Assembly: GCA_965243025.1 (NCBI GenBank)
Contig: CBDETY010000003.1
Coordinates: 4,064,001-4,128,000, forward strand
Length of the DNA stretch: 64,000 bases
Source of the DNA: Candidatus Latescibacterota bacterium
Lineage (GTDB): Bacteria; Latescibacterota; UBA2968; UBA8231
Direction of reading: 5' to 3'
The first letter of the stretch is position 1, and every line of letters begins with the position of its first letter. The notes beneath the pieces are model-generated. The model did not search any database. It was not told the DNA's origin and saw only the letters and a program-made list of their open reading frames with translations. This document shows positions 40,606-57,788 of this stretch, piece by piece. The translations under genes were made by a program, and so were the position numbers.

Positions 40606-40616
40606 GGAGTAATCCC

Positions 40617-41249: not shown

Positions 41250-41252
41250 TTC

Positions 41253-42220: not shown

Positions 42221-42269
42221 TATACTTGGTGGAGGCAAGATTACATCCAGCGGTAGTTATTCCATTTCA

Positions 42270-42356
42270 GGTAAACATTTCGCCGGTTTTCAAATCTGCG
42301 AATCGGGTTGCCGAAGACCATGGAGCGTACCTACGTAGCGCAATTCGCTGTTGGAC
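42270..42356. repeat. attC-like site (degenerate)
   Basis: GGTAAACATTTCGCCGGTTT..GGTTGCCGAAG..CGTAGCGCAA..GTTGGAC. Confidence 0.6.
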
Positions 42357-42382
42357 GACGTGGGGAAAAATTCGTGACAAGG

Positions 42383-42925
42383 CTAGTTCAAAAGTAGTGT
42401 GCCCGGGACTCGAAGAATCTCGCACTTTTTGAACGTACCTTTGTCGTATGTCAATCTTACCCCTTCGCAATAGTTACATGAAGGTCCCCAAGTTTCATGG
42501 TCCGCACCGGGCACGCAACGAACTGCACTGGCTTCGATAAAACCCCCATGAGAAACCAACAGTGCTCGGCCGCCTTCCTGGAGCGACCGGGCTACGTCGA
42601 GGTGGAACTCGGCCAGTTGGTCCGCCAGATTTGCCACAACGCTGCCTGGGTATTGACGGATATAAGAAGAAAAGTCCCCAAATCCTGCGTCGAAGAAAAC
42701 CTCCACATCTTGGGGCATGGAAGCGAGCAGTTCGACCTGTTGGTCGACCGCAAATCCCATGGCAATGCTGGTTTCAAATGCGCGAGGGGCGGTACTCGTG
42801 TAGACCATGTCGAATGCGGTCATCTCCTCTCCAACTCGCCTGGCAAGATTAACCCCGTCTTGAGAAAGATGCTGTCCCGGTTTCCCCCTCATTGAGTGTC
42901 GTCGATGTTCAATGAATCTCCCCAT
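42383..42925 (-). CDS. Histidine phosphatase family protein
   Basis: RRHS, TS...RAFET, LLVSHGG. Confidence 0.8.
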   Translation of the reverse strand: MGRFIEHRRHSMRGKPGQHLSQDGVNLARRVGEEMTAFDMVYTSTAPRAFETSIAMGFAVDQQVELLASMPQDVEVFFDAGFGDFSSYIRQYPGSVVANLADQLAEFHLDVARSLQEGGRALLVSHGGFIEASAVRCVPGADHETWGPSCNYCEGVRLTYDKGTFKKCEILRVPGTLLLN

Positions 42926-42936
42926 TCAGAGTTACC

Positions 42937-43344
42937 TCAGTCGGTTAAATGGTTCTCGTCCATGTCGCCTAACGTCTCCCGGTCTGCGACCCGCGCAGCC
43001 GGTTGCCGAAGGCCAACCGTGACCTTGTCGGCCTTCGCCGCCTCTCCTTGCAAACCTGGCGTATGGAGGACAAAGTGGTAATGGTCCTCGGAACAGGACA
43101 AGAACGTGTGCACCTCCCGCGGTTCGATGATGACGCCCGATTTCTCGGCAAAGTATAACTCCTCACCTTCGACAAGCATTGTGGCGTCGCCCTGCGCAAA
43201 CAGATAGATCTCGGTGGTAGTTTTATGGGAATGGGGTTCATTTATGGCGATGTTCGCATAACCGATCGAAATGTTAAGGTCTGAGTCCCAAGGCCCTACA
43301 AACCAGCCCTTGTCCATGTTTGTATCCGGCTCAATGATTCTCAC
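42937..43344 (-). CDS. Cupin protein, copy 2 (stop lost, reads into half attC)
   Basis: Near-identical to 51390-51725; HSH...TEIY, EP.EVH. Confidence 0.75.
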   Translation of the reverse strand: MRIIEPDTNMDKGWFVGPWDSDLNISIGYANIAINEPHSHKTTTEIYLFAQGDATMLVEGEELYFAEKSGVIIEPREVHTFLSCSEDHYHFVLHTPGLQGEAAKADKVTVGLRQPAARVADRETLGDMDENHLTD

Positions 43345-43373
43345 TAATTTTGCCCTCCAGCTCGTTGCATTTC

Positions 43374-43455
43374 GAATAGGTTTCGCCATGCACCAAGCGG
43401 CGAACCAGTTGGTGAAAACGCGCCAGCGCAAAAGCCGGACACGGACGTGTTATAT
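43374..43455. repeat. attC-like site
   Basis: GAATAGGTTTCGCC...CGGACAC..GTTATAT. Confidence 0.65.
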
Positions 43456-43479
43456 GTCGTGCCTCCGTCGCACCGAGGA

Positions 43480-44082
43480 TCACTTGCTCTCCTTCAGTCG
43501 ATGCAAATGGGAGGCATTGTTGTATTGGACAAGGGTCCAGATTCCGTCGGCCAGAGACCATTCCGTAATGCCTGTATTCAAAGGATCCAGCCAGACCTTG
43601 GTCCCGGTTCCTGAAAAAAGCATTTTCGTTGAGCCGACGATGAATCCGCCATGAGTCACTGCTACTACTGTCTGTCCGTTGAATCGCTCCGAGTAGGACA
43701 ACAACGTCGATCGTGCTCTGTCAAACAGCTCCTGGAAGGTTTCGGCGCCCGGAGGCGGGGAATCTCCGTACTTTGCCTGGATCCCGGAGGTGGTGAGACC
43801 CTCGGCTTGTCCCAGTCGCAGCTCACAAAGATCTGGATCCTCGGTTACGCATTGGGCCGGCAGTACATCCAACAGGATCTTTGCGGTCTGACGCGCCCGT
43901 GCAATAGTGCTGCTGAGCAGTGTTTCACAATCGGAGAATTCACCTGATTCTCGGATATGTGTCGCAAGCGCATAAACTTGCTCCCTGCCCAAGTCCGTGA
44001 GGCCCGAGCACGTGCGCTCACCGGAGTTCGTCTCGGTAAGCTGGTCCTTGCTTTGTCCGTGCCTGACGAGTACCAGTCGCAT
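43480..44082 (-). CDS. Histidine phosphatase family protein
   Basis: LVLVRHGQ, RARQTA, VAVTHGG, NTGIT. Confidence 0.9.
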   Translation of the reverse strand: MRLVLVRHGQSKDQLTETNSGERTCSGLTDLGREQVYALATHIRESGEFSDCETLLSSTIARARQTAKILLDVLPAQCVTEDPDLCELRLGQAEGLTTSGIQAKYGDSPPPGAETFQELFDRARSTLLSYSERFNGQTVVAVTHGGFIVGSTKMLFSGTGTKVWLDPLNTGITEWSLADGIWTLVQYNNASHLHRLKESK

Positions 44083-44271
44083 TGGATGCCAGTGTCCCCT
44101 CGCAGAGATAGAGATTCGAGAAAATCCGTTCCGTGAGTGGGCCCCATTCCGATTGAGAAGGCGGAAGGCGACCCTCTTAAGGATGTAGCCGACGCCGAAG
44201 GCCGCTTGGCCAAGAGTGCCGTACCTGCCTGTGCCAGTTTGAGAATCGGCATAGAACAGCGACAGCCTCCC

Positions 44272-45369
44272 TCACGGCGTCTCCAGAATCTTGAGCGCGG
44301 CCTCGATCTGCGCCACGGCGTCACGGTCGGCCTTCAACGCCTGGGCGATGAGGGAGCGGATTTCGACGCGCTGCCGGGGGGTGAAAATCTGGGGCTCGTG
44401 CTTTGTGGCAGCAACGCACAAGTCGAAGATTGAGGTGATGGATTCGACCTCTCGGTCATAGTGAGCGGCTGCTGCTTCCAGCGGTTCGGCGGCGGCCGGA
44501 TAGACACCGGCAAGCTCCCGCAAGTAGGCGGCCGCGGCTTCCCTTCGCTGTTTCAGGGTTTCTGTGTGCAGGAACGTGGCATTCAGCTTTACGTCAGATT
44601 CGAACGCTTCCTGCCAGAGCTCGTAGGCGGCGAATCCGTAGGGTTTTTTCAGGCGGTCGTGGCGAGTTCCGTTCGCGAAGGCGACGGCATTGCGGAGCGA
44701 GGTGAGGTGAAGCGCGTTGTCGTCAAGGTCTTTCCGCTCGAAGATGCCGACGCGGAACCAATCGCTCGGGTCCCCGAACCCGATGGCGTCAAAGCGGACC
44801 GGGTAGTCGAGCTTCTCGGCCGGTTGGCGGATCAGATAGGTTTGACCTCCTGGGTTGTAGCCGACGATCAGTCCCCAGCATGCGAATCGGACCTTACCCC
44901 TCTGCTCCAGGCTCAGCGGAGCCCAGACGAGGCTGGGGAGTCCGTCCTCCAGGCTGGCGACGACTGCGTCTCGTGCTTCGGCCTTGAGCGCAGGGAGATC
45001 AACGTCCGAGTTCTTGTCCGCATCATAGACTTTCGCCTGACCAAAGATGTCGAGGACGTGCATGGCCAGGCCCCAATCGAGATCGTCGTCGAAGACCTTC
45101 CCGCCCCCTTCCTGCATCCGGAAGTAGAAGGCGTATCCCGTCAGCGCTTCCAGTCGAGGGATCGACCAGCCCTGTTGCCCGAGAGCCGGCAGCAGTGCGT
45201 ACATCGCGCAGACGAGGGTGGAACGGGAATCCTTGTTCATGACCGGCATCTCGACGTCTGGCAGGACGGTTCGGGACACGGCTCCCTCCGGGGGTTCTTC
45301 TCGTTCGTGGGCGAGGATGGGCGAGAGGAGGAGGATTGAGGCGCCTATGATGGATGTCAGGGTTTTCAT
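44272..45369 (-). CDS. Exported hypothetical protein
   Basis: Signal peptide; WGLIVGY and GFAAYELW motifs; GC-rich codon usage. Confidence 0.65.
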   Translation of the reverse strand: MKTLTSIIGASILLLSPILAHEREEPPEGAVSRTVLPDVEMPVMNKDSRSTLVCAMYALLPALGQQGWSIPRLEALTGYAFYFRMQEGGGKVFDDDLDWGLAMHVLDIFGQAKVYDADKNSDVDLPALKAEARDAVVASLEDGLPSLVWAPLSLEQRGKVRFACWGLIVGYNPGGQTYLIRQPAEKLDYPVRFDAIGFGDPSDWFRVGIFERKDLDDNALHLTSLRNAVAFANGTRHDRLKKPYGFAAYELWQEAFESDVKLNATFLHTETLKQRREAAAAYLRELAGVYPAAAEPLEAAAAHYDREVESITSIFDLCVAATKHEPQIFTPRQRVEIRSLIAQALKADRDAVAQIEAALKILETP

Positions 45370-45398
45370 GGGTCTCTCTTTGTGGGCACTGCCATGGC

Positions 45399-45478
45399 AG
45401 GTAATGTTTGTGCCCCCCGCACCGCGAAGTGGTTGGGCGAAGGGCCGAATGGTTCAAAGACGGGGCACGATGTCAACC
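45399..45478. repeat. attC-like site, close homolog of 51755-51833
   Basis: Shared GGTTGGGCGAAGGGCCGAATGG core and GTGCCCC/GGGGCAC arms. Confidence 0.85.
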
Positions 45479-45546
45479 GCTGCTTTGTCCTCGGGTAACG
45501 AACGGATCGCGATTCAACCGCGACATTACTACGATTTCCCCCTTGT

Positions 45547-45631
45547 GGTTAACGTTCCCGCTGTGCACGAACTGTCGCAGGCAGTTGGGCGAAGGCCGAA
45601 TTGACCGAAACCGCACACGGGCTTGTTGTCG
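45547..45631. repeat. attC-like site
   Basis: GGTTAACGTTCCCGCTGTGC..TTGGGCGAAGG..GCACACGGG..GTTGTCG. Confidence 0.8.
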
Positions 45632-45722
45632 GCTGCCGCTTCGGGGTATTTCAGTCACGTTCGGTCCTTCAGATTACGGCGGCATCAGAGCGTACACCAT
45701 AGACCAAGTGTCTCTCCTGTTC

Positions 45723-46235
45723 TTACTCGTTCAATAGGCCGGCAGCAATGAGGGCACGATGGTGCAGCGGTAGAAAAACGTCAGATTCAAACTCCGAAAG
45801 AATTCGTTCAGGCTGAACCAGTTTGCGTGCCAGGGTTTCGTGTTCGGGAGCCCACTCATTGAGCTCGACTTTCGCCAGCCAGATGGAGCGAACCAGCACC
45901 AGCCCCTTTTCGTGTCCCCTGATGCATTCTCCGCGCGAGAACCCCAGTAGCTTTGCCTCTCTGACCTCGACGCATGCTTCCTCTCTCATCTCCCGCCGCA
46001 GGGTTTCTTCCCAAGACTCACTTCCTTCCGGTCTGCCTGCCGGGAATCCCCACGTTTCCCCATCTTGCGTAGCCAGCACAACTTCGCCGTTGCCTGTCAG
46101 GCAAATACCACCAGAACCGTGGCGTTGTCCTTCTGGCACATCGTGAGGAGGAAACCAAGTGACGCGAACATCCTGTCCACCCGTTTCTACCTGAAATGCT
46201 TCGTATTCGATAGCTGGTCTCGGTGCCTCAGACAT
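45723..46235 (-). CDS. NUDIX hydrolase
   Basis: PAGRPE..ESWEETLRREMREE. Confidence 0.85.
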   Translation of the reverse strand: MSEAPRPAIEYEAFQVETGGQDVRVTWFPPHDVPEGQRHGSGGICLTGNGEVVLATQDGETWGFPAGRPEGSESWEETLRREMREEACVEVREAKLLGFSRGECIRGHEKGLVLVRSIWLAKVELNEWAPEHETLARKLVQPERILSEFESDVFLPLHHRALIAAGLLNE

Positions 46236-46388
46236 CCCGTGCCTTTCCTCAGAAAGTGGTACTCCTCGGTCCTGTATGAAAATAGCACGGATCAAACCAG
46301 GATGTGTGAGCGTATCAGCTGACCCTGACCCAAGCTGCCGAAGCCGGCGCGGTGACAACAGGTTGTCAAGCGACAAATGAATCCCTTA

Positions 46389-47693
46389 TTACCCACCAAC
46401 CATAGAGATCTCGGTTCGGAGCACGCGAAGGCCGGCTTCCAAGATGCGGTCTGTGTCGCCTCGGTTTTCGCCCCCAAGCGTCAGATCGACCACGACATCG
46501 GGCACATAACCCGTTCGAGAGATGGGTTGGAATGCGCCCTCCTTCAGCACGCCATTCTGAATCTTCTCTCCGGTAATTTGAAACCCCAAATTCGTACCCG
46601 GCATCTGCCGCCAAAACACGCCGCCTTCCAGACCTGCCATCTTGAGACCAACCGTTCGCGCCCTACCGAGTGCGCTCAGACTGATCGCCAGCCCCTCACC
46701 CGCGCTGCCTGTCCAGGGTCCGACCAGAACCACAAGAGGATTAAGATACTGGAACGCCCCCCGGGGCTCGACGTAACTGAAGCGATATCGGCCAGAGCGG
46801 TCTTGTGTCTTTTGGTAAGCGGCCTTTGAATCAAGAAAACGACCGGCAATACGTTCAAGAACCGCCGTGTTGCCGCCGCCAACTCGCCTGAGATCGATTA
46901 TGAGACCCCCGGCCGCGCCAAGTTCCTCAAGAGTCGAATCGAAAACTCCTACTACCGAGTCATCGCCCAGAGAATCGTTGAATCTGATGTAGCCGACGCC
47001 ACCTGGGAGCCATCTGCTATCGAGTTGGGTCGCATGCTGATGACTGTAGATACGGTCGAAAGTGCCAGATTTAACCGCAAAGACAAGCTCCTGAGCTTCT
47101 CGCTGGACCCTGACCTGCCTGTCGATGCCTCGGTATCCCGCGAGAACCCTGTTCAACGCCAAATTGCGCATTCCAGATGTTATTTCTACCGCTGCTACCG
47201 GTAGTCGAGAATCTACCAGCTCTTCGATTGGCGTGTTGCCGAGGTCAATCACGATGTCGCCTGGCCGCAGGCCACTCGTGTCTGCCGCAAATCCTGCCCG
47301 TACCGCCTTGATTACTGCCCGCCCCGCCTCCCAACGAGCATGCAAATCTGATCGAGCCGGTACGATTCGCGGGGAGGTCGATGTGTTGGCCGTGAGGTGG
47401 ACGTGGTTGTCGCACAGCTCCTCCAAGACCCGTTCGACAACCGCCATGAAGGAATCAAGCGTAGCGGCAGTTTCAACCTGACGGAAGTAGTGCCCCCTGA
47501 CCTTCTGCCAATCTACGGGTACGTCCTCGAAATAGGCATACTCGTTGCTGAAGGAATCCAAAAGGAACTCGAAATCCTCGACGAAGTCAGCTTTGGAGAA
47601 CTCCTGATTTCCTTCGCTCAATCTCGGCACAGCTACCAGAAGGCCTGCGATCAAACTCCCAAGTGTCCAAATTGTGCACGAAGTCGGTCCCAC
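46389..47693 (-). CDS. S41 family peptidase
   Basis: DNH, VGYIRF, LIIDLR..GGGN, TGSAGE, PDVVV. Confidence 0.88.
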   Translation of the reverse strand: MGPTSCTIWTLGSLIAGLLVAVPRLSEGNQEFSKADFVEDFEFLLDSFSNEYAYFEDVPVDWQKVRGHYFRQVETAATLDSFMAVVERVLEELCDNHVHLTANTSTSPRIVPARSDLHARWEAGRAVIKAVRAGFAADTSGLRPGDIVIDLGNTPIEELVDSRLPVAAVEITSGMRNLALNRVLAGYRGIDRQVRVQREAQELVFAVKSGTFDRIYSHQHATQLDSRWLPGGVGYIRFNDSLGDDSVVGVFDSTLEELGAAGGLIIDLRRVGGGNTAVLERIAGRFLDSKAAYQKTQDRSGRYRFSYVEPRGAFQYLNPLVVLVGPWTGSAGEGLAISLSALGRARTVGLKMAGLEGGVFWRQMPGTNLGFQITGEKIQNGVLKEGAFQPISRTGYVPDVVVDLTLGGENRGDTDRILEAGLRVLRTEISMVGG

Positions 47694-47698
47694 TTTTT

Positions 47699-47792
47699 GC
47701 TTGATGTTTCGCCGGTTTGCGAACCTGCCGAAGCGGGCGCAGGTTGGGGCCGAGGCGCGAATGCGCCGGAGCCGCTGCCGGGCGTGTCAGGC
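47699..47792. repeat. attC-like site (degenerate)
   Basis: GTTTCGCCGGTTTGCGAAC resembles left arm of 55249 site; ends GTCAGGC. Confidence 0.65.
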
Positions 47793-47810
47793 GAAGCGGA
47801 ACTGATCGAA

Positions 47811-48563
47811 CTAGCGAAGTGCTGAAATGACGTCTGGCAGCTCTGCAAGCGAACTCACTGACAAATCAAAACGGCTTGGTTCACTATGCCCAACTTTGAC
47901 AGTCTTGAGACCGGCTTTGCGAGCTGAAGCAAGAGCAACTTCGCCATCGTCAACTACAATTACATTTGAGAGCTTCGCCCCCACGGCTTCAACAATCGCC
48001 GGATAGAACCGTTCATGGCCTTTCTGGAAGCCGATCAGATCTGACCCAAAAGGCTTTCCGATCAGGTTCCGCACTCCTAATCTGGGCAGGACGGTCTCAA
48101 TGATCCAAGCAGGATTCCCCGACGCCATGTGGATTTCAAAGTCATCGGAAAGCCTCTTTATAGCACCTGAGCTCCCCGGACAGATAGCTTCTGTATTCTC
48201 ATATAAATGTGTCAACGCCCGTTCTGCGACATCCACCCGCTCCTCAAAAGTTCGCGGTGCCTCGACCCCAACTATCCTGCAAAGCTCGACTATCCACTGG
48301 GCGTTGAGGCGGTCCCACCATCGAGCAAGATTTAAGCGACGCAGACCTCGGTCTTCTTTGTACTCCACAGATGCCTGCTTCCACACCTCTAACCAGACTT
48401 TTCGCTGATACAGAGCCCAGGCATGGCGATTGCCACCAAGCAGGGGAGTAAATGCGGACCCGGCCAATCGGGCAGACTCCGAGTCCCACTGTTCCTCATC
48501 CAGGATCACGCCGTCAAGGTCGAGGAGCAAGAAGTTGCGATTGGCCGGAGACATTGAGATCAT
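47811..48563 (-). CDS. HAD-family hydrolase
   Basis: LLDLDGVI, ASG, VVDD. Confidence 0.8.
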   Translation of the reverse strand: MISMSPANRNFLLLDLDGVILDEEQWDSESARLAGSAFTPLLGGNRHAWALYQRKVWLEVWKQASVEYKEDRGLRRLNLARWWDRLNAQWIVELCRIVGVEAPRTFEERVDVAERALTHLYENTEAICPGSSGAIKRLSDDFEIHMASGNPAWIIETVLPRLGVRNLIGKPFGSDLIGFQKGHERFYPAIVEAVGAKLSNVIVVDDGEVALASARKAGLKTVKVGHSEPSRFDLSVSSLAELPDVISALR

Positions 48564-48617
48564 CAGGAGAGTTTGAATGGATGGCCGACCAGTTGGGCAA
48601 GAGTGCTCTCTGGCACG

Positions 48618-49439
48618 TCACTCTCCATCAGCGTTCGATGGCGACCGATGTTGGGCAAACAGCCAGCCCAGCAACCCTGGGGTATCGAACGCCAGGGGCC
48701 AGACCACATGGCCCGCTTCCGAAAATTCCGTGTATCTCGGGGCACTTCCCACTTCTTGCAGGGCCTTGATCATTGCGCGGGAGTTCGCGACGCGATAGCC
48801 GGTGTCCTTTGCGCCTTGGAAGGACCAGACCGGCACATGCGAAAGAGTAGCCGCCTGTTCGGGCAAGCCCTTCCCACACACTGGAATGGCCGCGGCAAAG
48901 GCGTTGGGCCGTGCAGCCATCAGCTCCCACGTACCTCCGCCCCCCATTGACTGACCCGTCACATAGACACGATCTGGATCGACCGGGAATTCGCTCAGCA
49001 CTTGATCAATGAGACCGAGTACGCGTCCACCCACCCCTTCTGACACGCGCCAGCTCGTCTCTGGGGGGCACTGGGGGACGAGAAGAAAACTGGGATAGGC
49101 CGTGCGGTTGGCCTCAGTGGCGAGAATCTGGGCCGCCCAGCAACCCCGGATCTGTTGCACATTGTCCATGCCCCGGCCTCCGGATCCCGACAGGCAGACA
49201 ACCAGAGGATATGATCTTTGGGGGACGTGATCCAGGGGCTTTAGGAGCCGGTAGAGCAGGGAATCACCCGAGGCAGTACGGTAAGTACGAGGTTCGAATT
49301 GTTGGGCTAATTCGGCAGCGTATTCGCCCCCGGCCTTGTGGCGTTCTTCAGCGGATGGTCCATCGGATGCCCTACCTGAGTGCACGTGCCCGAAGACCAG
49401 GGGCACCGCCAAGATCCCGAGGACATATTTGTTTGTCAT
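48618..49439 (-). CDS. Exported esterase/peptidase (alpha/beta hydrolase)
   Basis: YPLVV.L.G.G.RG, RVYVTGQSMGG, GAKD, GH.VW. Confidence 0.85.
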   Translation of the reverse strand: MTNKYVLGILAVPLVFGHVHSGRASDGPSAEERHKAGGEYAAELAQQFEPRTYRTASGDSLLYRLLKPLDHVPQRSYPLVVCLSGSGGRGMDNVQQIRGCWAAQILATEANRTAYPSFLLVPQCPPETSWRVSEGVGGRVLGLIDQVLSEFPVDPDRVYVTGQSMGGGGTWELMAARPNAFAAAIPVCGKGLPEQAATLSHVPVWSFQGAKDTGYRVANSRAMIKALQEVGSAPRYTEFSEAGHVVWPLAFDTPGLLGWLFAQHRSPSNADGE

Positions 49440-49531
49440 AAGGGATTACAGGACAGTAGCGGGAACTGCAGTGTCTTAATCGTGAGCATTGCACAGTCAA
49501 TCTGAATAGACAGGCTCATTCTTTGCCATGT

Positions 49532-49619
49532 CTATATAGTTCTCGCCGTGCTCAAGCTGACGTAGCCAGTTACGGCGAAGGCGTCTCCGCGCCGTAGCCG
49601 GGCACCGTACGCGTTATAT
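49532..49619. repeat. attC-like site, left box degenerate
   Basis: TCTCGCCGTGCTC..GGCGAAGGCG..CGTAGCCGGGCAC..GTTATAT. Confidence 0.65.
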
Positions 49620-49704
49620 GAAGGCGATGATTTACCCTCTATGTTTCAAGGGCGACCCTTAAGAGAATTCGACCTAACCTCCATCGAATTCTCTGAGATC
49701 GAGT

Positions 49705-50502
49705 CTATTGCTCCCCTTCCTCCCGCTTTAGCATATAGACTGTGAACTCTCCGATTAATCGAAACCCGATATGTGTGGCCAATCGTTCAGATACTGTGTT
49801 TCCTGGCCATGTATGCCAAGTTGGTTCCAATCTTGCGGCGAGACAACCCTCAATGTATGCGGCAGTTACTTGCGTGGCATATCCCTTGCGGCGGAATGGC
49901 TCGCCCGTCCTCAGTTGAGGATCCGCCCAACCTGCGCCGACGAGAGCTGTGAAGCAAAAACTGGCAAGGTTATCCCCCTCAAAGAGGCCGTAGCCCAGAC
50001 CCTCTCTACAGAAATGCTCTACTGAGTCGAAATACCAGAGAATCCCCGACTCCGAATCTTGATCAATTAAGTCGGCAAGTGACTCATTGATGCGCTCTAT
50101 CCTACAACCGGGCGCCAGTTTCGTCGGGGTAGACATCTTTTTGTATGAGTTTTCGTCGAACCGGTAGGATAACATCTGGTATGGCTCGGACGAATCTCTC
50201 ATGAATGTCCTCAGGCGATCCTGCCAATATCCAGCCGTCCCACATAGGTGAAGCACGTCATTGTCGATCTTATCAAACAGTTCTCGCTCCAATTCATCTG
50301 AGAAGGACTCATTTTCACCTCCCACATAGGAGTATCCTGTGGAATGACAGACGACCGTAGCGCGGGGTGCTATTGCGTCGTCAACGAAAATCCTACCGAT
50401 CTGCTTCTGCTCGATCACGCTGTGTGGTAGCGAAGGCCACATTTCGATTCCCTCAAACAGAGGAGCAACCCGCTGAAAATTAGCCGGGGTGAGTTCGATC
50501 AA
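49705..50502 (-). CDS. GNAT acetyltransferase (GNAT_2-like)
   Basis: GLGYG, FRRKGYA, P.W...N..S..LA..IGF. Confidence 0.85.
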   Translation of the reverse strand: MIELTPANFQRVAPLFEGIEMWPSLPHSVIEQKQIGRIFVDDAIAPRATVVCHSTGYSYVGGENESFSDELERELFDKIDNDVLHLCGTAGYWQDRLRTFMRDSSEPYQMLSYRFDENSYKKMSTPTKLAPGCRIERINESLADLIDQDSESGILWYFDSVEHFCREGLGYGLFEGDNLASFCFTALVGAGWADPQLRTGEPFRRKGYATQVTAAYIEGCLAARLEPTWHTWPGNTVSERLATHIGFRLIGEFTVYMLKREEGEQ

Positions 50503-50575
50503 TTTTTTTGCCCGTTAGGGTCAAGGAGGGTAAACGCCGCAGCGGGAATGGACGTGTCAGCAAACCGTTTCAGAT

Positions 50576-51250
50576 TCACCCAATGATAAGCGAATTGGGG
50601 GAAGATGCCGGGAGACCTGCGTCGAACCGCCGATAACCAAACCTCTCAAAGGTCTCTGATTCGTACGCCCAGACAACCTTCTCCTCGTCTTCATTGAAAT
50701 GGTCAAAGAACGTCCCCGGCGGCCGGATTCCTCGCTCAAGTGCACGTGGGTACTCCGGCGCGTCGTCGCTGACGAATGGCAACTCTTTGAGGCACTGCGG
50801 AAGACGCTCGTATAATAGCACCTGTGTTACACCTGCGGCCTTGCAATAATACCACTGATTCATCACACTCTCTGGGCAATCGCCACCCCCAAGTTGTGTC
50901 CCGTCCTTCTCAAGCGTGTAGCCCCGAATCCGTTCCTCCAGGGACTCCGGGTGCTCCTTCGGAAGCTCGACTTGCTCTCTCAGACTTTCGTGTGGCTCAC
51001 GGTCTCCCAAGCTTTCGTATTTCCCTTTTCCCCCCCAAGGAATAGCGAACGCTCCACTCGTGTGCCGGTCATAGGGATTCCGAACGATGGTGAAGATCAG
51101 GTAACCTCTAGCCTCTTCCGGAACGACCATGTCGTGGTGCCCCCCCACGGTTTGCCCCTGGTAGTGAGTGCAGAGCCAACGAATCATCGACTTCGAACTG
51201 GTCCTGGGGATGCCGATGTAGGCATATCTGAGGAAATGAGAAAGGACCAT
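50576..51250 (-). CDS. Sulfotransferase-like protein
   Basis: IPRTSSKS, FTIVRNPYDR, FERFGY. Confidence 0.7.
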   Translation of the reverse strand: MVLSHFLRYAYIGIPRTSSKSMIRWLCTHYQGQTVGGHHDMVVPEEARGYLIFTIVRNPYDRHTSGAFAIPWGGKGKYESLGDREPHESLREQVELPKEHPESLEERIRGYTLEKDGTQLGGGDCPESVMNQWYYCKAAGVTQVLLYERLPQCLKELPFVSDDAPEYPRALERGIRPPGTFFDHFNEDEEKVVWAYESETFERFGYRRFDAGLPASSPNSLIIG

Positions 51251-51281
51251 ATATCGCCTCCACTGCCAATGCTTGAATGTC

Positions 51282-51378
51282 TGCTGCCGTTTATCGGTTT
51301 GCGGACCCCGAGTTTGGCGAGGGGTTGCCGAAGGCCAAAGCCCCAAAAGCCCCGCAGAGCAGCACCGTGATGTTATTC
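51282..51378. repeat. attC-like site
   Basis: CGTTTATCGGTTTGCGG..GGTTGCCGAAGGCC..CCGCAG..GTTATTC. Confidence 0.75.
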
Positions 51379-51389
51379 GATGTGATCAA

Positions 51390-51725
51390 TCACGCAACCC
51401 TGACTTTGTCGTTAACCGCTGCCTCTCCCTGCAAACCTGGCGTATGGATGACAAAGTGGTAATGGTCCTCGGAACAATACAAGAACGTGTGCACCTCTCC
51501 AGGTTCGATGATGACGCCAGATTTCTCGGCAAAGCTAAACTCCTCGCCATCGACAAGCATCGTGATGTGGCCGTGCGCAAACAAATAGATTTCGGTGGTA
51601 GACCTGTGATAATGGGGTTCGTTTATGGCGGTGTTTGCATATCCGATTGAAATGTTCAGATCTGAGTCCCAAGGTCCAACAAACCAGCCCTTTTCCATTT
51701 TATTATCCGGCTCAATGATTCTCAC
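51390..51725 (-). CDS. Cupin protein, copy 1
   Basis: HYH...TEIY and EPGEVH cupin motifs. Confidence 0.8.
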   Translation of the reverse strand: MRIIEPDNKMEKGWFVGPWDSDLNISIGYANTAINEPHYHRSTTEIYLFAHGHITMLVDGEEFSFAEKSGVIIEPGEVHTFLYCSEDHYHFVIHTPGLQGEAAVNDKVRVA

Positions 51726-51754
51726 TTGCTTTGGCCTCCAGCTCGTTGCATTTC

Positions 51755-51833
51755 GAATAACGTTTCAGTGCCCCGCATCGCGAAGCGGTTGGGCGAAGGG
51801 CCGAATGGCCCAAGCCGGGGCACCATGTTAGAG
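51755..51833. repeat. attC-like site
   Basis: GAATAACGTTTCA GTGCCCCG ... CGGGGCAC CAT GTTAGAG; TAA of adjacent gene inside the box. Confidence 0.9.
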
Positions 51834-52406
51834 GACGTGGCTTCCCTCAACGCTCGCTGGAAATCGTCTATCGGACTCGTTCGCATGAGATGCAAGCCAG
51901 GCCTTCTTTGTCAGTAAGAACTGACGTGCTGCTTCCCCCTTGAACTTGGAACTATTGTAGACAAACCCTTCAGTCTCCTGAAAGCCGTTTTTTTCGAGGA
52001 CACGGGCTGATCCAGGATTTCGCCTTAAGCAGGCGGAGCGAACGGTTTCCATTCCGAGCTCGAGGAAGGCATACCGTAGTGCCAAAGAAACGGCCTTGGT
52101 TGTAATTCCCTTTCCCCAGTAGGCCGAGGCAATGGCGTAATCGCATTGGATGCTACCGCTCTCCAAATCACTTCCCCCTAATTCAACGACTCCTATCATC
52201 TCTCCGTCGGCAACGATGGCAAAGAAGAAACCCGCTCCGTTTCGGCGGGCATCAACGGCCTGTTCCACAAACCTTGCAGCGCCATCCTCTGGATAGGGCT
52301 CGGGAATCGTAGTGGTTCGTGCTACCCGCTCATCAGAGGCGTAACGTTGGACCGCCGGTTCGTCGCCAATCCGCAGTGGCCGGATTGTAACCTTTAGTTC
52401 TGTCAT
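51828..52406 (-). CDS. GNAT N-acetyltransferase (RimJ/RimL type)
   Basis: IPEPYP, YWGKGIT, NPGSARVLEKNGF. Confidence 0.9.
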   Translation of the reverse strand: MTELKVTIRPLRIGDEPAVQRYASDERVARTTTIPEPYPEDGAARFVEQAVDARRNGAGFFFAIVADGEMIGVVELGGSDLESGSIQCDYAIASAYWGKGITTKAVSLALRYAFLELGMETVRSACLRRNPGSARVLEKNGFQETEGFVYNSSKFKGEAARQFLLTKKAWLASHANESDRRFPASVEGSHVL

Positions 52407-53143
52407 CGTCTCCTTCCCATGTCCTCTAACTGATTGCCATTCACGAAGCCGCGTAGCGGCTGTCGAGGGATCTTACACTGGGCCTCAAGGTGGCGAAGAT
52501 CGTCCTGATCCAGACTGCAATCGTTGCTGTGGACGTACGAATCCAGATCCATTAGAATCAATCGATGAAAACGAGCATCCAGTGCTCTCAATCCCCACTC
52601 TCCGGCCTCTATCTTGGTGCAGAGACGGCGTTCCGCCAAGGTAAATGCAACGCGGCAAAACATCAGCGCAGGATTCTTGAAGTGGGTCCGTATCTGCGGA
52701 ACAACGTGCCGAATGCACTGCCGCAGTAAAGGCCACGGAACGCGTTTCAGAATCCTGTTGTGAGGTGTACCGAGAAGATCCCTCCCTGATTCAAAAATAT
52801 CTTGCCTCAACAAGAGAAAATCTTTGCTACCATCAGGCTTGAGGACAATTGTATTGTTCATCTTGAGAAGGAAATCAACAGGAGTGGGGAAAACGTCGGC
52901 GTTGATATGGTCTATCGTTGCTGCTGTTATGTCGTAAGACAGAGACTGTGATTTTACGTGTTCCAGGAGATGCACCCTTTTCTCCGACGGAGTGGGACGC
53001 TTCGTGACAAGAAGAAGGTCAACATCACTCGTCTCAGGATTGCCAGACTCCCGAGCGCGTGAGCCACCCATCCAAACCGATTCCAGTTCTCCTTCGTAAA
53101 TCTCACCGAGTCCCTCCACAAAGCCATCTATTGCACTTCTCAT
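52403..53143 (-). CDS. Nucleotidyltransferase resembling aminoglycoside adenylyltransferase (DUF4111) family; C-terminus altered
   Basis: GGS....G...SDVDLL, L.FCR......LCTK.EAG.W; final codons derive from a half attC. Confidence 0.7.
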   Translation of the reverse strand: MRSAIDGFVEGLGEIYEGELESVWMGGSRARESGNPETSDVDLLLVTKRPTPSEKRVHLLEHVKSQSLSYDITAATIDHINADVFPTPVDFLLKMNNTIVLKPDGSKDFLLLRQDIFESGRDLLGTPHNRILKRVPWPLLRQCIRHVVPQIRTHFKNPALMFCRVAFTLAERRLCTKIEAGEWGLRALDARFHRLILMDLDSYVHSNDCSLDQDDLRHLEAQCKIPRQPLRGFVNGNQLEDMGRRR

Positions 53144-53257
53144 GGCAAGAATTACCGGGGAGAAATGAATCGGGCTCCTGTCCGACCTCTATCTAACATC
53201 GAGGAAGCATATCCTGGAGTGATGTCAATATGGCCAGCTTCACTTATATGCGATGAC

Positions 53258-53339
53258 ACCTAACGTTTCAGTGCCGCCGAACCGCGCAGCGGTTGGGCGA
53301 AGGGGCTCTTGTCCCGAAGCCGGGGGCACGGTGTTACAT
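53258..53339. repeat. attC-like site
   Basis: ACCTAACGTTTCA GTGCCGCCG .. ACCGCGCAGCGGT TGGGCGAAG .. CGGGGGCAC GGT GTTACAT. Confidence 0.9.
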
Positions 53340-53376
53340 GAAGTGCGCTGATACCCTGCGATATCGGATCCGATGC

Positions 53377-53958
53377 TTAACCGCTTCCTATGCCTGAAAC
53401 AACGACGCAAACAGCACTGGCAGTGTCGATATGGGTCAGATAGTAGTCTTCCGCTGCCCTCCATCTCCGAATCCATTCGTCTGTGTTTTCACCTCGCTTG
53501 ACCAGCCTATCCAAACATTCGGCCTTGGGAGTGTCGACGAAAATGGAGAAGCCATAGAAGTTCCTCAATTCCGGCCGATAAGAATAGACCCCATCGATCA
53601 GTATGATGCCCTCAGCCGGTTGGTCAATCCACTCCGCCAGCTGGTTGATCCCCCAATCATAGCGCTGGTAGCGAGTTCGATCTCCACCCGATAAAGGTTT
53701 AAGGAGTTCACTTCGCATCCTTACCCAATCAAAATACCTCATGTAACCATCTTCAGGCGTTAGAGCCCTTCTCTCAGACTCCCCCATTGGAGTATAGAAG
53801 TCATCCCCGTGAACGATTGAGATGAGATTACATGTCTCGCTTAGTTTCCTGGCGATGGTTGACTTTCCAGCTCCGCCGGGACCATCGAGTGCGACTACGA
53901 GAAGGCTATTCGAGCCCAATTCCGAGACAAGCCGCGATGAGAGAACATTAACGTCCAT
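53377..53958 (-). CDS. Uridine kinase-like P-loop protein
   Basis: VALDGPGGAGKST, HGDDFY, YQRYDW, LIDGVYS. Confidence 0.88.
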   Translation of the reverse strand: MDVNVLSSRLVSELGSNSLLVVALDGPGGAGKSTIARKLSETCNLISIVHGDDFYTPMGESERRALTPEDGYMRYFDWVRMRSELLKPLSGGDRTRYQRYDWGINQLAEWIDQPAEGIILIDGVYSYRPELRNFYGFSIFVDTPKAECLDRLVKRGENTDEWIRRWRAAEDYYLTHIDTASAVCVVVSGIGSG

Positions 53959-53998
53959 GTCGTGTCAGCGTCTATTGCAGATGTCGATCAAGCATTTC

Positions 53999-54083
53999 AT
54001 ATATCGTTCCGGGCGGGCTGCGAACCCGCGCAGCGGGTTGGTGCGAAGGCCAATGGCCGGTCCGCAGCCCGGCGTAGTATGCG
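53999..54083. repeat. attC-like site with ATC core
   Basis: ATATATCGTT..CGGGCTGCG / CGCAGCCCG perfect arms; internal CCCGCGCAGCGGG hairpin. Confidence 0.8.
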
Positions 54084-54108
54084 GCGTTTCTCACGCCCTT
54101 TTTACCCC

Positions 54109-54474
54109 TCAACGAATACTTGAGGCACAATCCAAAAAGGTCTCTGCATCCAAATCGAAACTGGGAGTATGGAGGAGGAGTAGAGTCGCGTCTTCATCGG
54201 ATGAATTCTCGTATGAAAAACTTTGACCTTGCTGGACGAGACAAAAGTCGGCGCCTTCGAGCCGATACTCCTTCCCCTCTATCGTGAAGAGGACTATTCC
54301 ATTCAAAACGTAGTAGTACTTGTCAGAGCGCTCCGACCTTGCCTTCCGATGACCTCTGCCAGGACCAACTTTTATTTTGGCAAGCGAGGAACTGATATTC
54401 ACACCTGAGGTGTAGTCGAATATCTGAAGGCCTTCGAATTCAATCGGAGCTACCGCCGAAGAGTTCACTACCAT
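54109..54474 (-). CDS. Cupin domain protein
   Basis: YYYVLNG...F.IEG..Y.L..ADF. Confidence 0.75.
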   Translation of the reverse strand: MVVNSSAVAPIEFEGLQIFDYTSGVNISSSLAKIKVGPGRGHRKARSERSDKYYYVLNGIVLFTIEGKEYRLEGADFCLVQQGQSFSYENSSDEDATLLLLHTPSFDLDAETFLDCASSIR

Positions 54475-54540
54475 TTGTGGGTCCTTGATGGCACTGGGGT
54501 TGGAATTTCAGAAGTCCTTAGAGGACGTAAATTAAATGCC

Positions 54541-54630
54541 GTATAACGTCTCACAATTCACGGAGTCGCGAATGCGACTTGCCGCAGCCCCAGCGCCGAG
54601 AGGCGCGTAGCGGGAATTGCTGTGTTATAT
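54541..54630. repeat. attC-like site
   Basis: GTATAACGTCTCA CAATTCACG ... CGGGAATTG CTGT GTTATAT. Confidence 0.88.
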
Positions 54631-54643
54631 GAAGTGGAGGACA

Positions 54644-55219
54644 TCACTTGCGTTCAGCCATTCGATCGAAGGCATTCGGACGGCTTCGGGTGTTCCAAGC
54701 ATCGACTACAGCTGCTGCGATAGCTTCGCTCGGCTGCGTCGAGTCGACCTCCAGATCGTACTCGATGAAACTGTGAACTATGTGAAAGTCCGCTCTGGCT
54801 TCTCCAGGTCCCCGGTCTCCTCTGGTGCGCTCCCTTCGCTCTAGCTCTGAGAGCGGACAGTGCACCCCGACGACGAAAACATCAAAAGCGGAAAGAAGAT
54901 CTAACAAATCTGACAACCACTCCTCGGTCTCGACTATGTGGTCAACGATGAGATTGTTGCCTGCACCGGCCAAAACCGGAAGACAACGGTGAAACCCATC
55001 GAATACCGCTGGCCGCATGGCTGGCCAATCGAGTTCACGATTGAGTATTCGGGACCATGGCAGAGCGTTGGAATCACGCAGATGGTCAAACGAAAAATGC
55101 CAAAAAGGAACTTCCAAGGTTTGCTGGAGGAGACGTGCGAGCGTCGACTTTCCTGCACTTGATGCGCCGTTTATGAGAATGATCTTGCCCTGGTCTCGAT
55201 CGTTATCCAAGTGTATCAA
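54644..55219 (-). CDS. Chloramphenicol phosphotransferase-like (CPT) kinase
   Basis: IILINGASSAGKST, GNNLIVD, VGVHCP..ELERRE..RGDR, YDLEVDS. Confidence 0.88.
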   Translation of the reverse strand: MIHLDNDRDQGKIILINGASSAGKSTLARLLQQTLEVPFWHFSFDHLRDSNALPWSRILNRELDWPAMRPAVFDGFHRCLPVLAGAGNNLIVDHIVETEEWLSDLLDLLSAFDVFVVGVHCPLSELERRERTRGDRGPGEARADFHIVHSFIEYDLEVDSTQPSEAIAAAVVDAWNTRSRPNAFDRMAERK

Positions 55220-55248
55220 GAATCCTGTTCAGCTTTTTAACTCATGTC

Positions 55249-55347
55249 ATATAACGTTACGCCGGTTTGCGAACGCCGAGTCAGTCGAGGCGTTGCCGAA
55301 GGCCAAGACGCCCGAAGGGCGGCGCAGCGCAAAACGTGCTGATATTT
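55249..55347. repeat. attC-like site with GAT right box
   Basis: ATATAACGTTACGCC GGTTTGCG ... CGCAAAAC GTGCT GATATTT. Confidence 0.85.
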
Positions 55348-55374: not shown

Positions 55375-56163
55375 TCAAAAAAGAATTTCGCCCCGCAGAT
55401 AGGTTACTGCCTGACCTCCGATCTCGACGCGATCTCCGCGGTCTTCACAATGCAAAACGCCACCACGCTCTGATACTTGCTTCGCCGTCATCCTATGTTT
55501 GTTTAGGCGAGTCGACCAATAAGGAATCAACGTGGTATGGGCTGAACCCGTCACTGGATCCTCGGGTATCCCCGATTGCGGAGCGAAAAATCGCGAAACG
55601 AAATCCACCTCATTCCCCGGGGCTGATACGATTATTCCGCGGGATTGAACTTGCTTGATGCGGGCAAAGTCAGGAGATAGGTTGCTAACTTCCCTCTCTG
55701 AATCGAGAATGGCGAGAAAATCAGCGCCACCTCGATAGAGTTCCAATGGTTCCCTGCCGAGCCCCTCGCAAAGATCACTTGGACAATTGTCTACCGCGGA
55801 AAACTGATCAGTTGGAAAGTCGAGCCAGATACGACCCTTTGACTGTCGCACGCGAAGGGGCCCAGACCGGGAATCGAATACAAGACTCTCTTGATTGTCC
55901 TGTTGTTCGAACAGGACATGGGCGGCGGCCAGGGTCGCGTGGCCACAAAGATCGACTTCAATCGTAGGCGTAAACCAACGAATGGAGATCGGGTCGGAGT
56001 TGCGGAATACGAAGGCAGTCTCGGCAAGGTTGTTCTCTGCGGCAATGTGCTGCATTGTGGTTTCTGGAAGTAAATCATCGCAAAGAACGATAGCAGCCGG
56101 ATTTCCTGAGAATGGCTGTTCGGAAAATGCATCGACTTGGTAAATTGGGAGTTGCATCACCAA
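55375..56163 (-). CDS. PhzF family epimerase/isomerase (first cassette)
   Basis: QVDAF..GNPAA, NLAETAF, EVDLCGHATLA, EDPVTGSAH. Confidence 0.93.
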   Translation of the reverse strand: MVMQLPIYQVDAFSEQPFSGNPAAIVLCDDLLPETTMQHIAAENNLAETAFVFRNSDPISIRWFTPTIEVDLCGHATLAAAHVLFEQQDNQESLVFDSRSGPLRVRQSKGRIWLDFPTDQFSAVDNCPSDLCEGLGREPLELYRGGADFLAILDSEREVSNLSPDFARIKQVQSRGIIVSAPGNEVDFVSRFFAPQSGIPEDPVTGSAHTTLIPYWSTRLNKHRMTAKQVSERGGVLHCEDRGDRVEIGGQAVTYLRGEILF

Positions 56164-56182
56164 TCCACTTCTCTTGCCCTAT

Positions 56183-56258
56183 GTCATATATCTGATTGCA
56201 TCCGAACAAATGGTTCGGATAATGATCACTGGATGGTACTTACCTGAAACGATGGTAC
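56183..56258. other. Candidate attI-like primary site
   Basis: GTCATATATC complements first cassette's far box; IR ATCCGAAC-N5-GTTCGGAT; direct repeat GATGGTAC twice. Confidence 0.55.
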
Positions 56259-56410
56259 GTGTGGGTGTGAACATTCGCAACCATTTCTTCCGTTCGCTGG
56301 GGTCGGCCTAACTCGTTGCGACTGTGACACATAGCCCGATCTCCGATCCCTGGTGCGACTGGCACGGTTTTCTCTACGGCAGGGCTGACTTCCCACTTGG
56401 AGAAACCCGA

Positions 56411-56905
56411 ATGCGGCGCTATCGGAGACACCGCGACCTGTCCGGCGACGAAGTCGCCATCCTCAACCGGTTCGAGTCCGAGCTGAAGCTGAGGGGGTAC
56501 GCGAGGAAAACGCAGAAGTCCTACATGGGTTGCGGCCGGCGATTCCTTCAGTGGAAACGGGACTTCCGCGGCGAACGGCAGAACCAGGTGCGATCAAGCG
56601 TACAGGCCGTCGACGTGGCTGTTTCCCGGTGCCCGGGAAGGACGGCATCCACCGAACGATCGGTACAGAAAGTGTTCTCCAAGGCGGTCGCCGCCGCGGG
56701 AATCCGCAAGCGGGTGACCGTGCACACCCTGAAACACAGCTTTGCGACGCACCTGCTCGAAGGCGGGACAGATCTGCGCTTCACCCAGGAACTCCTCGGC
56801 CACAGGAGCTCGAAAACGACGGAGATCTACACCCACGTGCAGCGGAAGGACCTGGTGCGGATCGAGAGTCCGCTCGACACCCTGCTGGGCTCCGCCCGGT
56901 CCTGA
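56411..56905 (+). pseudogene. Tyrosine recombinase (integron-positioned), internally deleted
   Basis: N-term [14 protein letters not shown] (SAM-like); C-term [40 protein letters not shown]; Box I absent; only 164 aa. Confidence 0.9.
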
Positions 56906-56909
56906 TCGG

Positions 56910-57788
56910 CTAACCGTCCTTCCGTTCGACGCGGACCGTGCCGTCCTCATCCACCCGCAGGTACACCTCGTCCCCCGGGGCGGAGCAGGGGCCGAACATC
57001 ACCGCCCGCTGCTCGTCGTTCATGCCGTCGACGACCTCCTCAGGCCAGTAGCGCTCGGGCCGAAAGCCCCCGCGCGAAACCCCTCTCCGGGTGGCGGTGC
57101 GGCCGGCGTACTTGAACAGGATGGAGCGCCGCTCGTGGTCGGCGTTCCACCGCAGGGTGCCGTGAGTCTGGGCCCCGTCCATGAAGAACAGCACGTCCCC
57201 CGCCCCGGCCTCCGGCTGCTCGACGACGCCCATGTCGTCGTCGCACGACCGCACTCCCGCCGGCATCGGCTCGCGCGACTTGTGACTGCCGGGAACGCAG
57301 GCGAAGCCGCCGTCCCCGGCGCTCGCGTCCGCCAGGAACCAGGAGACGGTCACCCCCTGGCAGCGGGACTCGCCGGCCTGGTGGTGGTAGCCGACGTACG
57401 GCCGGTGGGGTTCGCCGGCCCCGTGCATCACCAGACCCTCCGTTCCTTTGACGCCGCCGATGAAGTGGGGGCCGTGGTCGAACCGGAACCCGGGCCCGCA
57501 CATGGCGTTGAGCCGGGCAACGACCTGCGGGTGGGCGAGCATCTCACGGAACGGATCGCAGTGCGGCTTCTCCAGGGTCAGCAGGACCATGTCGGTCTCA
57601 ATCGCCAGCCGCTGCGAGCCGGCCAGGGCCCGCGACTGCCCGGCGGAATCCATCCCGGGATCGAGGGGGTGGTTCTGCAGGCAGAAGTCGACCGCTTCGT
57701 TGGCCCTTCGCAGCTCTTCCGGGCCGAGGACGCCCTTGACGATCAGGTACCCCGTCAGGTCCCAGAAATACCGCTCCCGATCATCCAT
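56910..57788 (-). CDS. PhyH family dioxygenase
   Basis: YFWDLTGYL, FRFDHG, GGFACVPGSHKS, HGTLRW. Confidence 0.85.
   Translation of the reverse strand: MDDRERYFWDLTGYLIVKGVLGPEELRRANEAVDFCLQNHPLDPGMDSAGQSRALAGSQRLAIETDMVLLTLEKPHCDPFREMLAHPQVVARLNAMCGPGFRFDHGPHFIGGVKGTEGLVMHGAGEPHRPYVGYHHQAGESRCQGVTVSWFLADASAGDGGFACVPGSHKSREPMPAGVRSCDDDMGVVEQPEAGAGDVLFFMDGAQTHGTLRWNADHERRSILFKYAGRTATRRGVSRGGFRPERYWPEEVVDGMNDEQRAVMFGPCSAPGDEVYLRVDEDGTVRVERKDG

Follow-up and report, generated by a model that had tools for sequence, protein, structure and literature searches.

A decayed IntI-like recombinase gene lacking the I2 helix, beside an integron-type cassette array in Candidatus Latescibacterota

A short open frame that ends like a tyrosine recombinase, and that lies next to a run of small genes heading away from it, raises the question of what kind of recombinase has decayed there and whether that enzyme once moved the genes beside it. 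The frame occupies positions 56411-56905 on the plus strand of a 64,000-nucleotide (nt) stretch from Candidatus Latescibacterota bacterium (GenBank assembly GCA_965243025.1, contig CBDETY010000003.1, positions 4,064,001 to 4,128,000), the whole of which we refer to as the window. We consider it very probable that the frame is what remains of a site-specific recombinase gene, now a pseudogene, whose enzyme worked on the adjacent integron-type array, and that this recombinase lacked I2, the additional helix carried by canonical integron integrases (IntI). The gene bears several inactivating lesions, the array that it heads has attC sites of integron architecture together with a signature of cassettes that travelled as circles, and the genome holds no intact copy of the gene; from these observations we infer that an I2-less recombinase family moved the cassettes.

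The identity of the remnant is given by profile matches and by alignment to intact relatives of 293 residues. Its 164-residue frame scores 68.7 bits against the last third of the Pfam model PF00589 (Phage_integrase) and weakly matches the start of PF13495 (Phage_int_SAM_4), and its best NCBIfam model is TIGR02249 (integron integrase), at 104.6 bits for a cut-off of 265. From the original start codon, 62 native codons are kept (56411-56595), which represent part of the N-terminal SAM-like core-binding domain and are collinear with residues 1-62 both of the intact relative P0001 and of the intact orthologue in a genome of the same genus, G103, the latter being 94% identical to P0001. Directly after 56595, at the junction 56595-56596, DNA alignment reveals that 386 nt are missing relative to the orthologues of G103 and of a further genome of that genus, G104. 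The deleted segment held the Box I arginine (GLRVGE) and the beta-hairpin lysine (GKGRKDR), and the remnant protein passes from ...EVRS (residue 62) straight to the ...AYRPSTW region. The next 18 codons (56596-56650) lie outside the ancestral frame, which is regained at TERSVQKVF through the loss of one nucleotide between 56649 and 56650 (CATC-CACC in the window, CATCTCACC in the orthologue). Because the deletion and the one-nucleotide loss together remove 387 nt (129 codons), a frame of 164 residues survives (293 - 129), composed of 62 native residues, 18 out-of-frame residues and 84 further native ones. A first-pass annotation made from the letters alone had already placed the loss of the central region, including the Box I arginine, near 56595, and had ascribed the continuity of the 164-residue frame to a one-nucleotide loss before TERSVQKVF; the alignment to the G103 DNA bears out both statements. 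It had also read the HxxR motif as HTLK, and correctly so: the codon at 56732-56734 is AAA (Lys), where the G103 orthologue has AGA and intact relatives all read HTLRH, such that the second catalytic arginine is lost. The catalytic tyrosine codon (56828-56830, within IYTHV), aligned via P0001 to the tyrosine of VchIntIA, is kept. Intact relatives, aligned to VchIntIA, possess the whole catalytic set of tyrosine recombinases (Arg I, Lys, HxxR with Arg II, His/Trp, Tyr), while in the remnant Arg I and the lysine are deleted, Arg II has become lysine, and the tyrosine is retained. Replacements found solely in the window, at residues invariant in intact relatives, affect the HxxR motif (R to K), LRYIQELL (YI to FT) and MGYCRR (YC to CG).

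Long-read assemblies often show single-base indels, and such lesions could in that light be sequencing or assembly errors in a gene that is truly intact, yet we regard the probability of this as practically negligible. Independently assembled Logan contigs from the runs X1 (study P1) and X2 and X5 (study P2), any one of which could be the run that yielded the genome, span 56150-57050 with 0 differences and 0 gaps, repeating all 901 bases and bridging the deletion junction unchanged; a 386-nt gap, the R to K replacement and the other substitutions are not error types; and the lost nucleotide does not lie within a homopolymer. A relative represented in a run of another study, X6, has 146 other letters at the junction (56596-56598) and a T behind 56649, the base missing in the window, and may carry a different internal deletion of the same gene. 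If the lesions are real, selection might still be keeping the 164-residue frame open for a non-catalytic DNA-binding or regulatory product, akin to the non-catalytic binder that the first-pass annotation had envisaged. The start codon and the conserved region upstream of it are indeed unbroken, the frame is restored by two lesions together, and the ratio of non-synonymous to synonymous substitution rates (dN/dS) is low in the C-terminal part; nevertheless we judge this explanation very unlikely. All three forward frames are open across 56742-56905, and at this content of guanine and cytosine (GC) an open frame is therefore uninformative, while in a neutrally decaying gene one pair of indels in three adds up to a multiple of three by chance. 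The product would join 62 residues of the N-terminal domain to the last 84 of the catalytic domain through 18 unrelated residues, with 129 residues missing from the two domains, and the window's own replacements fall on invariant residues. Moreover, a second copy in this genome and the copy in G104 have decayed by different routes. Relative to G103, dN/dS is 0.31 in the N-terminal part and 0.16 in the C-terminal part, from small counts, as opposed to a baseline of 0.12 and 0.095 for a pair of intact genes; the substitutions look relaxed, and the idea of a binder is left unsupported.

A dead gene might be compensated by an intact copy acting in trans, for which the first-pass annotation had proposed a search of the genome. 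Over the whole assembly (G000; 3 contigs, 96% complete), neither TIGR02249 nor a tblastn search with P0001 found an intact helper copy, and the matches were confined to the remnant, an Xer-like gene at 6.50 Mb (35% identity) and a heavily decayed N-terminal scrap at C3:3073632-3073867. Neither this genome nor G103 or G104 has a canonical IntI. The scrap adjoins an attI-like region of its own and a second array of the same family, with 10 attC sites (C3:3,029,000-3,086,800) and likewise in divergent layout; three more attC sites occur as strays, at 5.47 and 5.72 Mb.

The array headed by the remnant extends divergently from it over about 19 kb. Between ~15.5 and ~56.3 kb of the window GC falls from ~69% to ~55%, and the genes there are small, nearly all on the minus strand and directed away from the recombinase gene. 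Within this region, the cassette array proper (36869-55332, minus strand) is delimited by a hidden Markov model (HMM) of attC, by the intergenic sequences themselves, by complementarity at cassette boundaries, by L stems and by gene content; it contains 19 recognisable attC sites, every one of them on the minus strand, and two weaker ones. Read on that strand, the intergenic sites take the form xxxTAAC, spacer, L'' arm, one to three small inner hairpins, L' arm, spacer, GTTAxxx. The attC profile was built with nhmmer by iteration from ten hand-picked window sites, and the site statistics given here count 55 near-full hits among 62 (19 in the window, 43 in seven close relatives). Both core triplets, AAC and GTT, are intact at 36 of 40 sites in the relatives. 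A perfect L stem of at least 6 bp near both cores occurs in 31 of the 55 sites, compared with 3.8% of 1,100 shuffles, and the L arms covary, differing among sites yet remaining mutually complementary (for example CGGTTTGCG, CCGTGCCCG, CAATTCACG and CGGGCTGCG). The commonest geometry places a spacer of 4 nt on the R'' side and one of 7 nt on the R' side, and 14 of the 55 sites have a perfect 9-bp L stem with no bulged base.

A further test derives from the way in which cassettes move. If cassettes enter in the form of circles, with the crossover at G/TT, the outer three variable bases of R'' should pair with the bases that follow GTT at the upstream boundary of the same cassette, and not with those of the cassette's own attC site. 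This circle signature is perfect in 20 of 47 neighbouring pairs, versus 2 of 55 same-site comparisons and 4.5% at random (binomial p 3e-15), and the observed figure is lowered by intermediate sites that were missed. By their cores, their L boxes and the circle signature, the sites belong to true integron cassettes. Other ways of finding or folding the sites were set aside: a rule-based attC finder returned 16 wrong-strand for 15 right-strand matches, and a covariance model from three sites (R1) was overly sequence-specific, its 16 matches including spurious ones, and gave way to the iterated nhmmer profile. RNAalifold, applied to MAFFT alignments, recovered the inner hairpin only, because L-box columns are out of register among attC subtypes, and R and L pairing was for that reason tested by script.

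The products encoded in the cassettes include a PhzF-like protein, a chloramphenicol-phosphotransferase-like kinase, cupins, several GNAT acetyltransferases, a nucleotidyltransferase, hydrolases, NUDIX proteins and others, a mix that is usual in environmental integrons. The PhzF-like gene is the first of the array (55375-56163, minus strand). Resistance-enzyme-like cassettes lie at 52403-53143, encoding the nucleotidyltransferase (with a weak AadA_C match), and at 54644-55219, encoding the chloramphenicol-phosphotransferase-like enzyme. Between the first cassette and the recombinase gene, positions 56164-56410 hold the attI and promoter region, which is kept in 7 genomes up to the core site (alignment A4): about 210 nt from the start codon towards the first cassette are conserved in all seven, conservation stops at a CAGTTA-type core, and past that site the sequence varies between genomes. 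On the minus strand the attI core reads CAG/ATATATG in the window (56185-56194) and CAGTTATG in the relatives. The first cassette has a variant core (56185-56194; 55246-55344), in which the boundary is G/AT for G/TT and its own R'' is ATC for AAC, and this compensated pair also occurs in G104 (L118, 11237-11328). About 10 nt from the attI core, a palindrome CCGAACAAATGGTTCGG (CGAAC-N5-GTTCG, 56202-56218) is conserved in the 7 genomes and could be a candidate binding site of the integrase or of a regulator; no counterpart of CGAAC-N5-GTTCG was found upstream of lexA or of the two recA genes, and a link to the SOS response is accordingly not shown. An invariant motif, TGGCA(C/T)-N4-TTT(C/T)TCT, lies at ~56355-56375 (columns 247-266 of alignment A4), some 40-60 nt upstream of the integrase start in the same 7 genomes; it resembles the -24 element of sigma-54 promoters but lacks the -12 GC. 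At gathering thresholds, Rfam gave no match in the window.

The arrangement of gene, attI and array is not peculiar to this genome. Intact relatives drawn from a large protein collection are 293-314 residues long, and P0001 to P0008 are 81-94% identical over shared parts (P0009, 75%). Among 168 genomes of the phylum, a search with P0001 located close copies (76-94% identity) in 8; those of G103, G107, G105 and G040 are intact, whereas G106 has one TAA, the G104 copy is split, and those of G102 and G101 are partial. The orthologue in G104 (L118, 9443-10322) has been inactivated independently, by a 1-nt insertion and a replacement of the HxxR histidine by aspartate. Neighbourhoods of 20 kb were taken around seven of the close copies, and in 7 of 7 the gene has attC sites of this family at its 5' side, oriented away from it. 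In G040 (L117), attC sites of one orientation flank the intact integrase on both sides (5963-8177 and 15634-19069), three of them additional to those of the 5' side and lying opposite, as if the gene and its attI stood inside a longer array. The right flank of the window is syntenic with G103 and G104 at 90-94% identity, and the deeper cassettes keep the same order in the window and in those two genomes, while the cassettes near attI differ from those of G103: about 11 kb of cassettes separate attI from the first shared cassette in the window, as against less than 3 kb in G103. Such a difference fits insertion or loss of cassettes at attI after the species split.

What kind of recombinase headed these arrays is best judged from the intact proteins. 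The best solved relative of P0001 is VchIntIA (2a3v), which it matches in two stretches with 160.8 bits, followed by archaeal XerA (129.7) and XerD (90.5); between the two stretches P0001 has 19 residues (188-206) where 2a3v has 61 (179-239). Across 125 aligned proteins we measured the loop that runs between the GKGxKxR hairpin and HxLRH. It comprises 59 residues in 11 of the 12 close relatives (the remaining one, truncated, has 52), 58-63 in 91 of 91 members of the wider family, and 65-73 in 9 of 9 Xer proteins, compared with 99-100 in all 12 canonical IntI from the phylum; taken together, 103 of 104 family members fall within 58-63. The additional domain of IntI, that is the I2 helix with about 40 residues before HxxR, is absent from close and wider family alike. 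The first-pass annotation had given a signature for IntI in this region, and the canonical proteins carry exactly that string (...KYPNASKEWRWQWVFP...GRHH...); its description of the remnant as having a short loop and a C-terminal SPLD likewise agrees with the protein alignment. Downstream of the catalytic tyrosine, the SP[LIM]D tail could be matched in at least 10 of 12 close relatives, 60 of 91 wider members, 9 of 12 IntI and 0 of 9 Xer, counts that come from a rough pattern search in which the misses are partly failures of the expression. Under TIGR02249, P0001 and the G103 protein reach 233.8 and 223.6 bits in two stretches, both below the cut-off of 265, in comparison with 469.6 and 364.2 for the canonical IntI controls L123 and L132. 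P0001 also falls short of the Xer models TIGR02224 and TIGR02225 (177 bits on both; cut-offs 335 and 330). NF040815, which covers XerA-type and integron integrases (cut-off 220), places P0001 (213.5) and the G103 protein (212.1) under its threshold and the wider members L013 (249.2) and L016 (225.4) over it.

Phylogenetic trees were computed with FastTree (125 rows) and with IQ-TREE (LG+G4, short search; 57 rows) from columns filled in at least half of the rows, a filter that excludes the insertion itself; all IntI and Xer rows were drawn from a single phylum, nine Xer proteins form the root and several rows have deviant composition. Both trees unite IntI and the short-loop family to the exclusion of Xer with support of 100. 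Canonical IntI form one clade (100), the sister of which is a short-loop archaeal protein, L040 (92 and 98), and the close relatives of the window gene constitute a clade (99) inside the short-loop radiation. When all short-loop rows are forced to be the sister of IntI, the cost is 0.41 log-likelihood units (approximately unbiased (AU) test, p 0.49), and a sister group is consequently indistinguishable from a grade. The description of this family in the first-pass annotation as a sister of IntI is hence compatible with the data: kinship with IntI against Xer has support of 100 and VchIntIA is the best solved relative, but the trees do not divide sister from grade.

The family reaches far beyond the phylum. 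A scan of one genome per species returned more than 566 relatives at 43-60% identity, in Bacteroidota, Bacillota, Nitrospirota, Chlorobiota and Ignavibacteriota, Spirochaetota and several archaeal groups. At 16 of these wider loci with long flanks, housekeeping genes lie upstream, and downstream on the same strand there follow small and varied genes (ParE, PemK, GNAT, HEPN, KAP, NERD). The intergenic DNA of six loci (L013, L079, L016, L006, L029 and L071) contains attC-like sites 3' of the gene in all six, an arrangement that is co-oriented and includes genomes of Desulfitobacterium and Nitrospirota, whereas the clade of the window has the classical divergent layout. A palindromic scan for AAC-stem...stem-GTT at 80 wider loci found ~0.48 sites per kb downstream and 0.16 upstream, which, the scan being strand-blind and noisy, is a rough pointer. 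A distant branch, 47-48% identical to P0001 (L108 in G041, 1483-3531; L126 in G042, 1441-3682), is multi-copy, with 6 copies in G041 and several in G042. At two sites in G042, canonical IntI is followed immediately by a gene of this kind.

Two further explanations concern the origin of the family and of the locus. Short-loop proteins might derive from canonical IntI proteins in which the additional domain was lost secondarily, and might not represent a lineage older than I2; the internal order of the joint clade is weakly fixed (AU p 0.49 for the sister arrangement) and the root depends on nine Xer of one phylum, both of which leave room for such a history. We nonetheless consider it unlikely, given that the Xer outgroups lack the insertion too (loops of 65-73 residues), that canonical IntI form a single clade (100) next to or inside short-loop lineages with L040 as sister, and that a single gain explains the pattern more parsimoniously than loss throughout a family that extends over Bacteroidota, Bacillota, Nitrospirota and archaea. 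Alternatively, the remnant might derive from an integrase of IS91-associated or phage type whose gene inserted next to a cassette array with which it had no connection. The first-pass annotation had itself raised the IS91 association, and for the distant branch it holds, in that copies are multiple and the L108 gene is followed directly by an IS91-family transposase (PF04986 and PF14319). For the closest intact homologues, which lack the IntI insertion, it fails: 7 of 7 examined stand beside attC arrays, and none has an IS91 transposase nearby. All seven share the order of gene, attI and array together with a conserved attI, synteny links the locus to G103 and G104, and a Pfam scan of the 16 wider loci with long flanks found no IS91 transposase near the integrase. 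No transposase was found among the genes of the window, and the Y2_Tnp matches of this genome are limited to 3.44 and 5.46 Mb, with over 0.3 Mb separating them from each of its arrays. We therefore regard a chance arrival of this kind as extremely unlikely, and return to the reading of the feature as the pseudogene of the array's own recombinase.

With the enzyme dead and the only other copy a scrap, the array is frozen and its attC sites are eroding. Only 8 of 15 window sites retain both core triplets, as opposed to the 36 of 40 in relatives (Fisher p 0.005), perfect L stems of at least 6 bp are found in 4 of 15 versus 27 of 40, and the circle signature is perfect in 3 of 14 versus 17 of 33 pairs. 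Several points nevertheless weigh against our interpretation of the locus. The additional domain has been held necessary for recombination by integron integrases (Messier and Roy, 2001, as cited in PMC9668308; PMC7790495), and recombination of folded attC sites by I2-less enzymes is a prediction from sequence. Canonical IntI occurs in 17 of the 168 phylum genomes, and arrays built by a canonical IntI that was later lost could in principle account for what we see. The contrast in attC decay comes from one genome, with HMM seeds taken from the window and 55 of 62 near-full hits used, and the integrase of G104 is also broken, yet 3 of its 4 attC sites have intact cores. The C-terminal dN/dS of 0.16 is far below 1, which could reflect either recent inactivation or residual constraint. 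Finally, the distal 21 kb of the low-GC region (15500-36868; ~55-60% GC, mainly minus-strand genes) has no recognisable attC site, and no attC HMM match there is better than E 0.09. Segments of this stretch at 25.5-29.7 kb share 76-88% identity with the distal arrays in G103 and in G104, and the whole could be either old cassettes with decayed sites or a separate island.

In its layout, the locus resembles the sedentary chromosomal integrons exemplified by Vibrio cholerae and VchIntIA, where an integrase diverges from attI and from a long one-directional array of small cassettes, with folded sites built as R''-L''...L'-R' on AAC and GTT cores, a crossover at G/TT, and attC sites that are homogeneous within a lineage. 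Integrases of sedentary integrons are often pseudogenes, as in Xanthomonas and Nitrosomonas. The window-type integrase differs in lacking I2, with a loop of 59 in place of 99-100 residues, and in scoring below the TIGR02249 cut-off. Canonical attC sites have extrahelical bases in the L box, whereas 14 of 55 sites of the window type have a perfect L stem with no bulged base, and the asymmetry sits in the spacers, mostly 4 nt against 7 nt. A precedent is offered by the rAID-1 arrays of Bacteroidales, which combine a XerD-like recombinase with integron-like repeats (Ross et al., 2019, 10.1101/471110). The wider family includes many Bacteroidota loci of rAID-1 layout, and the window array is low in GC, as rAID-1 arrays are; on the other hand, rAID-1 arrays as presented there are co-directional and downstream, while those of the window and of 7 of 7 close relatives are divergent and on the 5' side, and the window host belongs to another phylum with high GC and has cassettes for small-molecule-modifying enzymes, not known immunity genes. 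The accessible text of that paper does not place the recombinase relative to IntI. In Bacteroidales, rAID-1 foreshadowed the I2-less integron type. In our literature search, from which subscription journals lay outside, nothing besides rAID-1 was found on I2-less IntI-like integrases at attC arrays.

Archaeal integrons, as described, have attC arrays with attI immediately downstream of intI, and an IntI with the additional domain (Ghaly et al., 2022, PMC9668308). Like them, the present arrays lie outside the classical host range, and the short-loop family has archaeal members; unlike theirs, the window-type proteins are without the additional domain. According to the IntegronFinder 2.0 paper (PMC9024848), it is this extra domain that tells IntI from other integrases, and integrons are only occasional in Firmicutes and few in Bacteroidetes. 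Clusters of attC sites lacking an integron integrase are known as CALIN (Cury et al., 2016; Neron et al., 2022, PMC9024848), and IntegronFinder, which requires the IntI-specific region, would probably file the window locus and its intact relatives there, even though the window array, unlike a CALIN, is headed by a dedicated and conserved recombinase gene and an attI. It has further been stated that integron integrases turned to single-strand recombination by acquiring the I2 helix (PMC7790495).

The working cycle that we propose for the locus is that of an integron. In the intact state, the 293-residue enzyme would excise a cassette as a circle by recombination between two attC sites, and would insert the circle at attI, crossing over at G/TT within the R' box. 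In this genome the enzyme is dead through the 386-nt deletion, the 1-nt loss and the replacement of Arg II by lysine. We also put forward, tentatively and with somewhat less than even confidence, a broader proposal, in which I2-less IntI-like proteins are the working integrases of true integrons, recombining folded attC sites whose strand asymmetry resides in the spacer between R and L and not in bulged bases; in which they represent the lineage that gave rise to canonical IntI through gain of I2; in which the clade of the window, within a high-GC phylum where canonical IntI also occurs, adopted the classical divergent layout independently; and in which every copy in this genome is dead, leaving a frozen and eroding array. 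The interest of the proposal lies in the view that the additional domain, the I2 helix, is what made a Xer-like enzyme fit for folded, single-stranded attC sites. An I2-less family heads arrays that bear all the sequence hallmarks of cassettes in integrons, and it does so across many phyla in which integrons are regarded as rare. If its members are active, the census of integrons would be too low, the requirement for I2 would not be general, and living intermediates for the evolution of IntI would be at hand. The value of the window gene itself lies in pointing to intact orthologues in genus-mates, to a clade with divergent layout, and to a natural experiment on the decay of an array.

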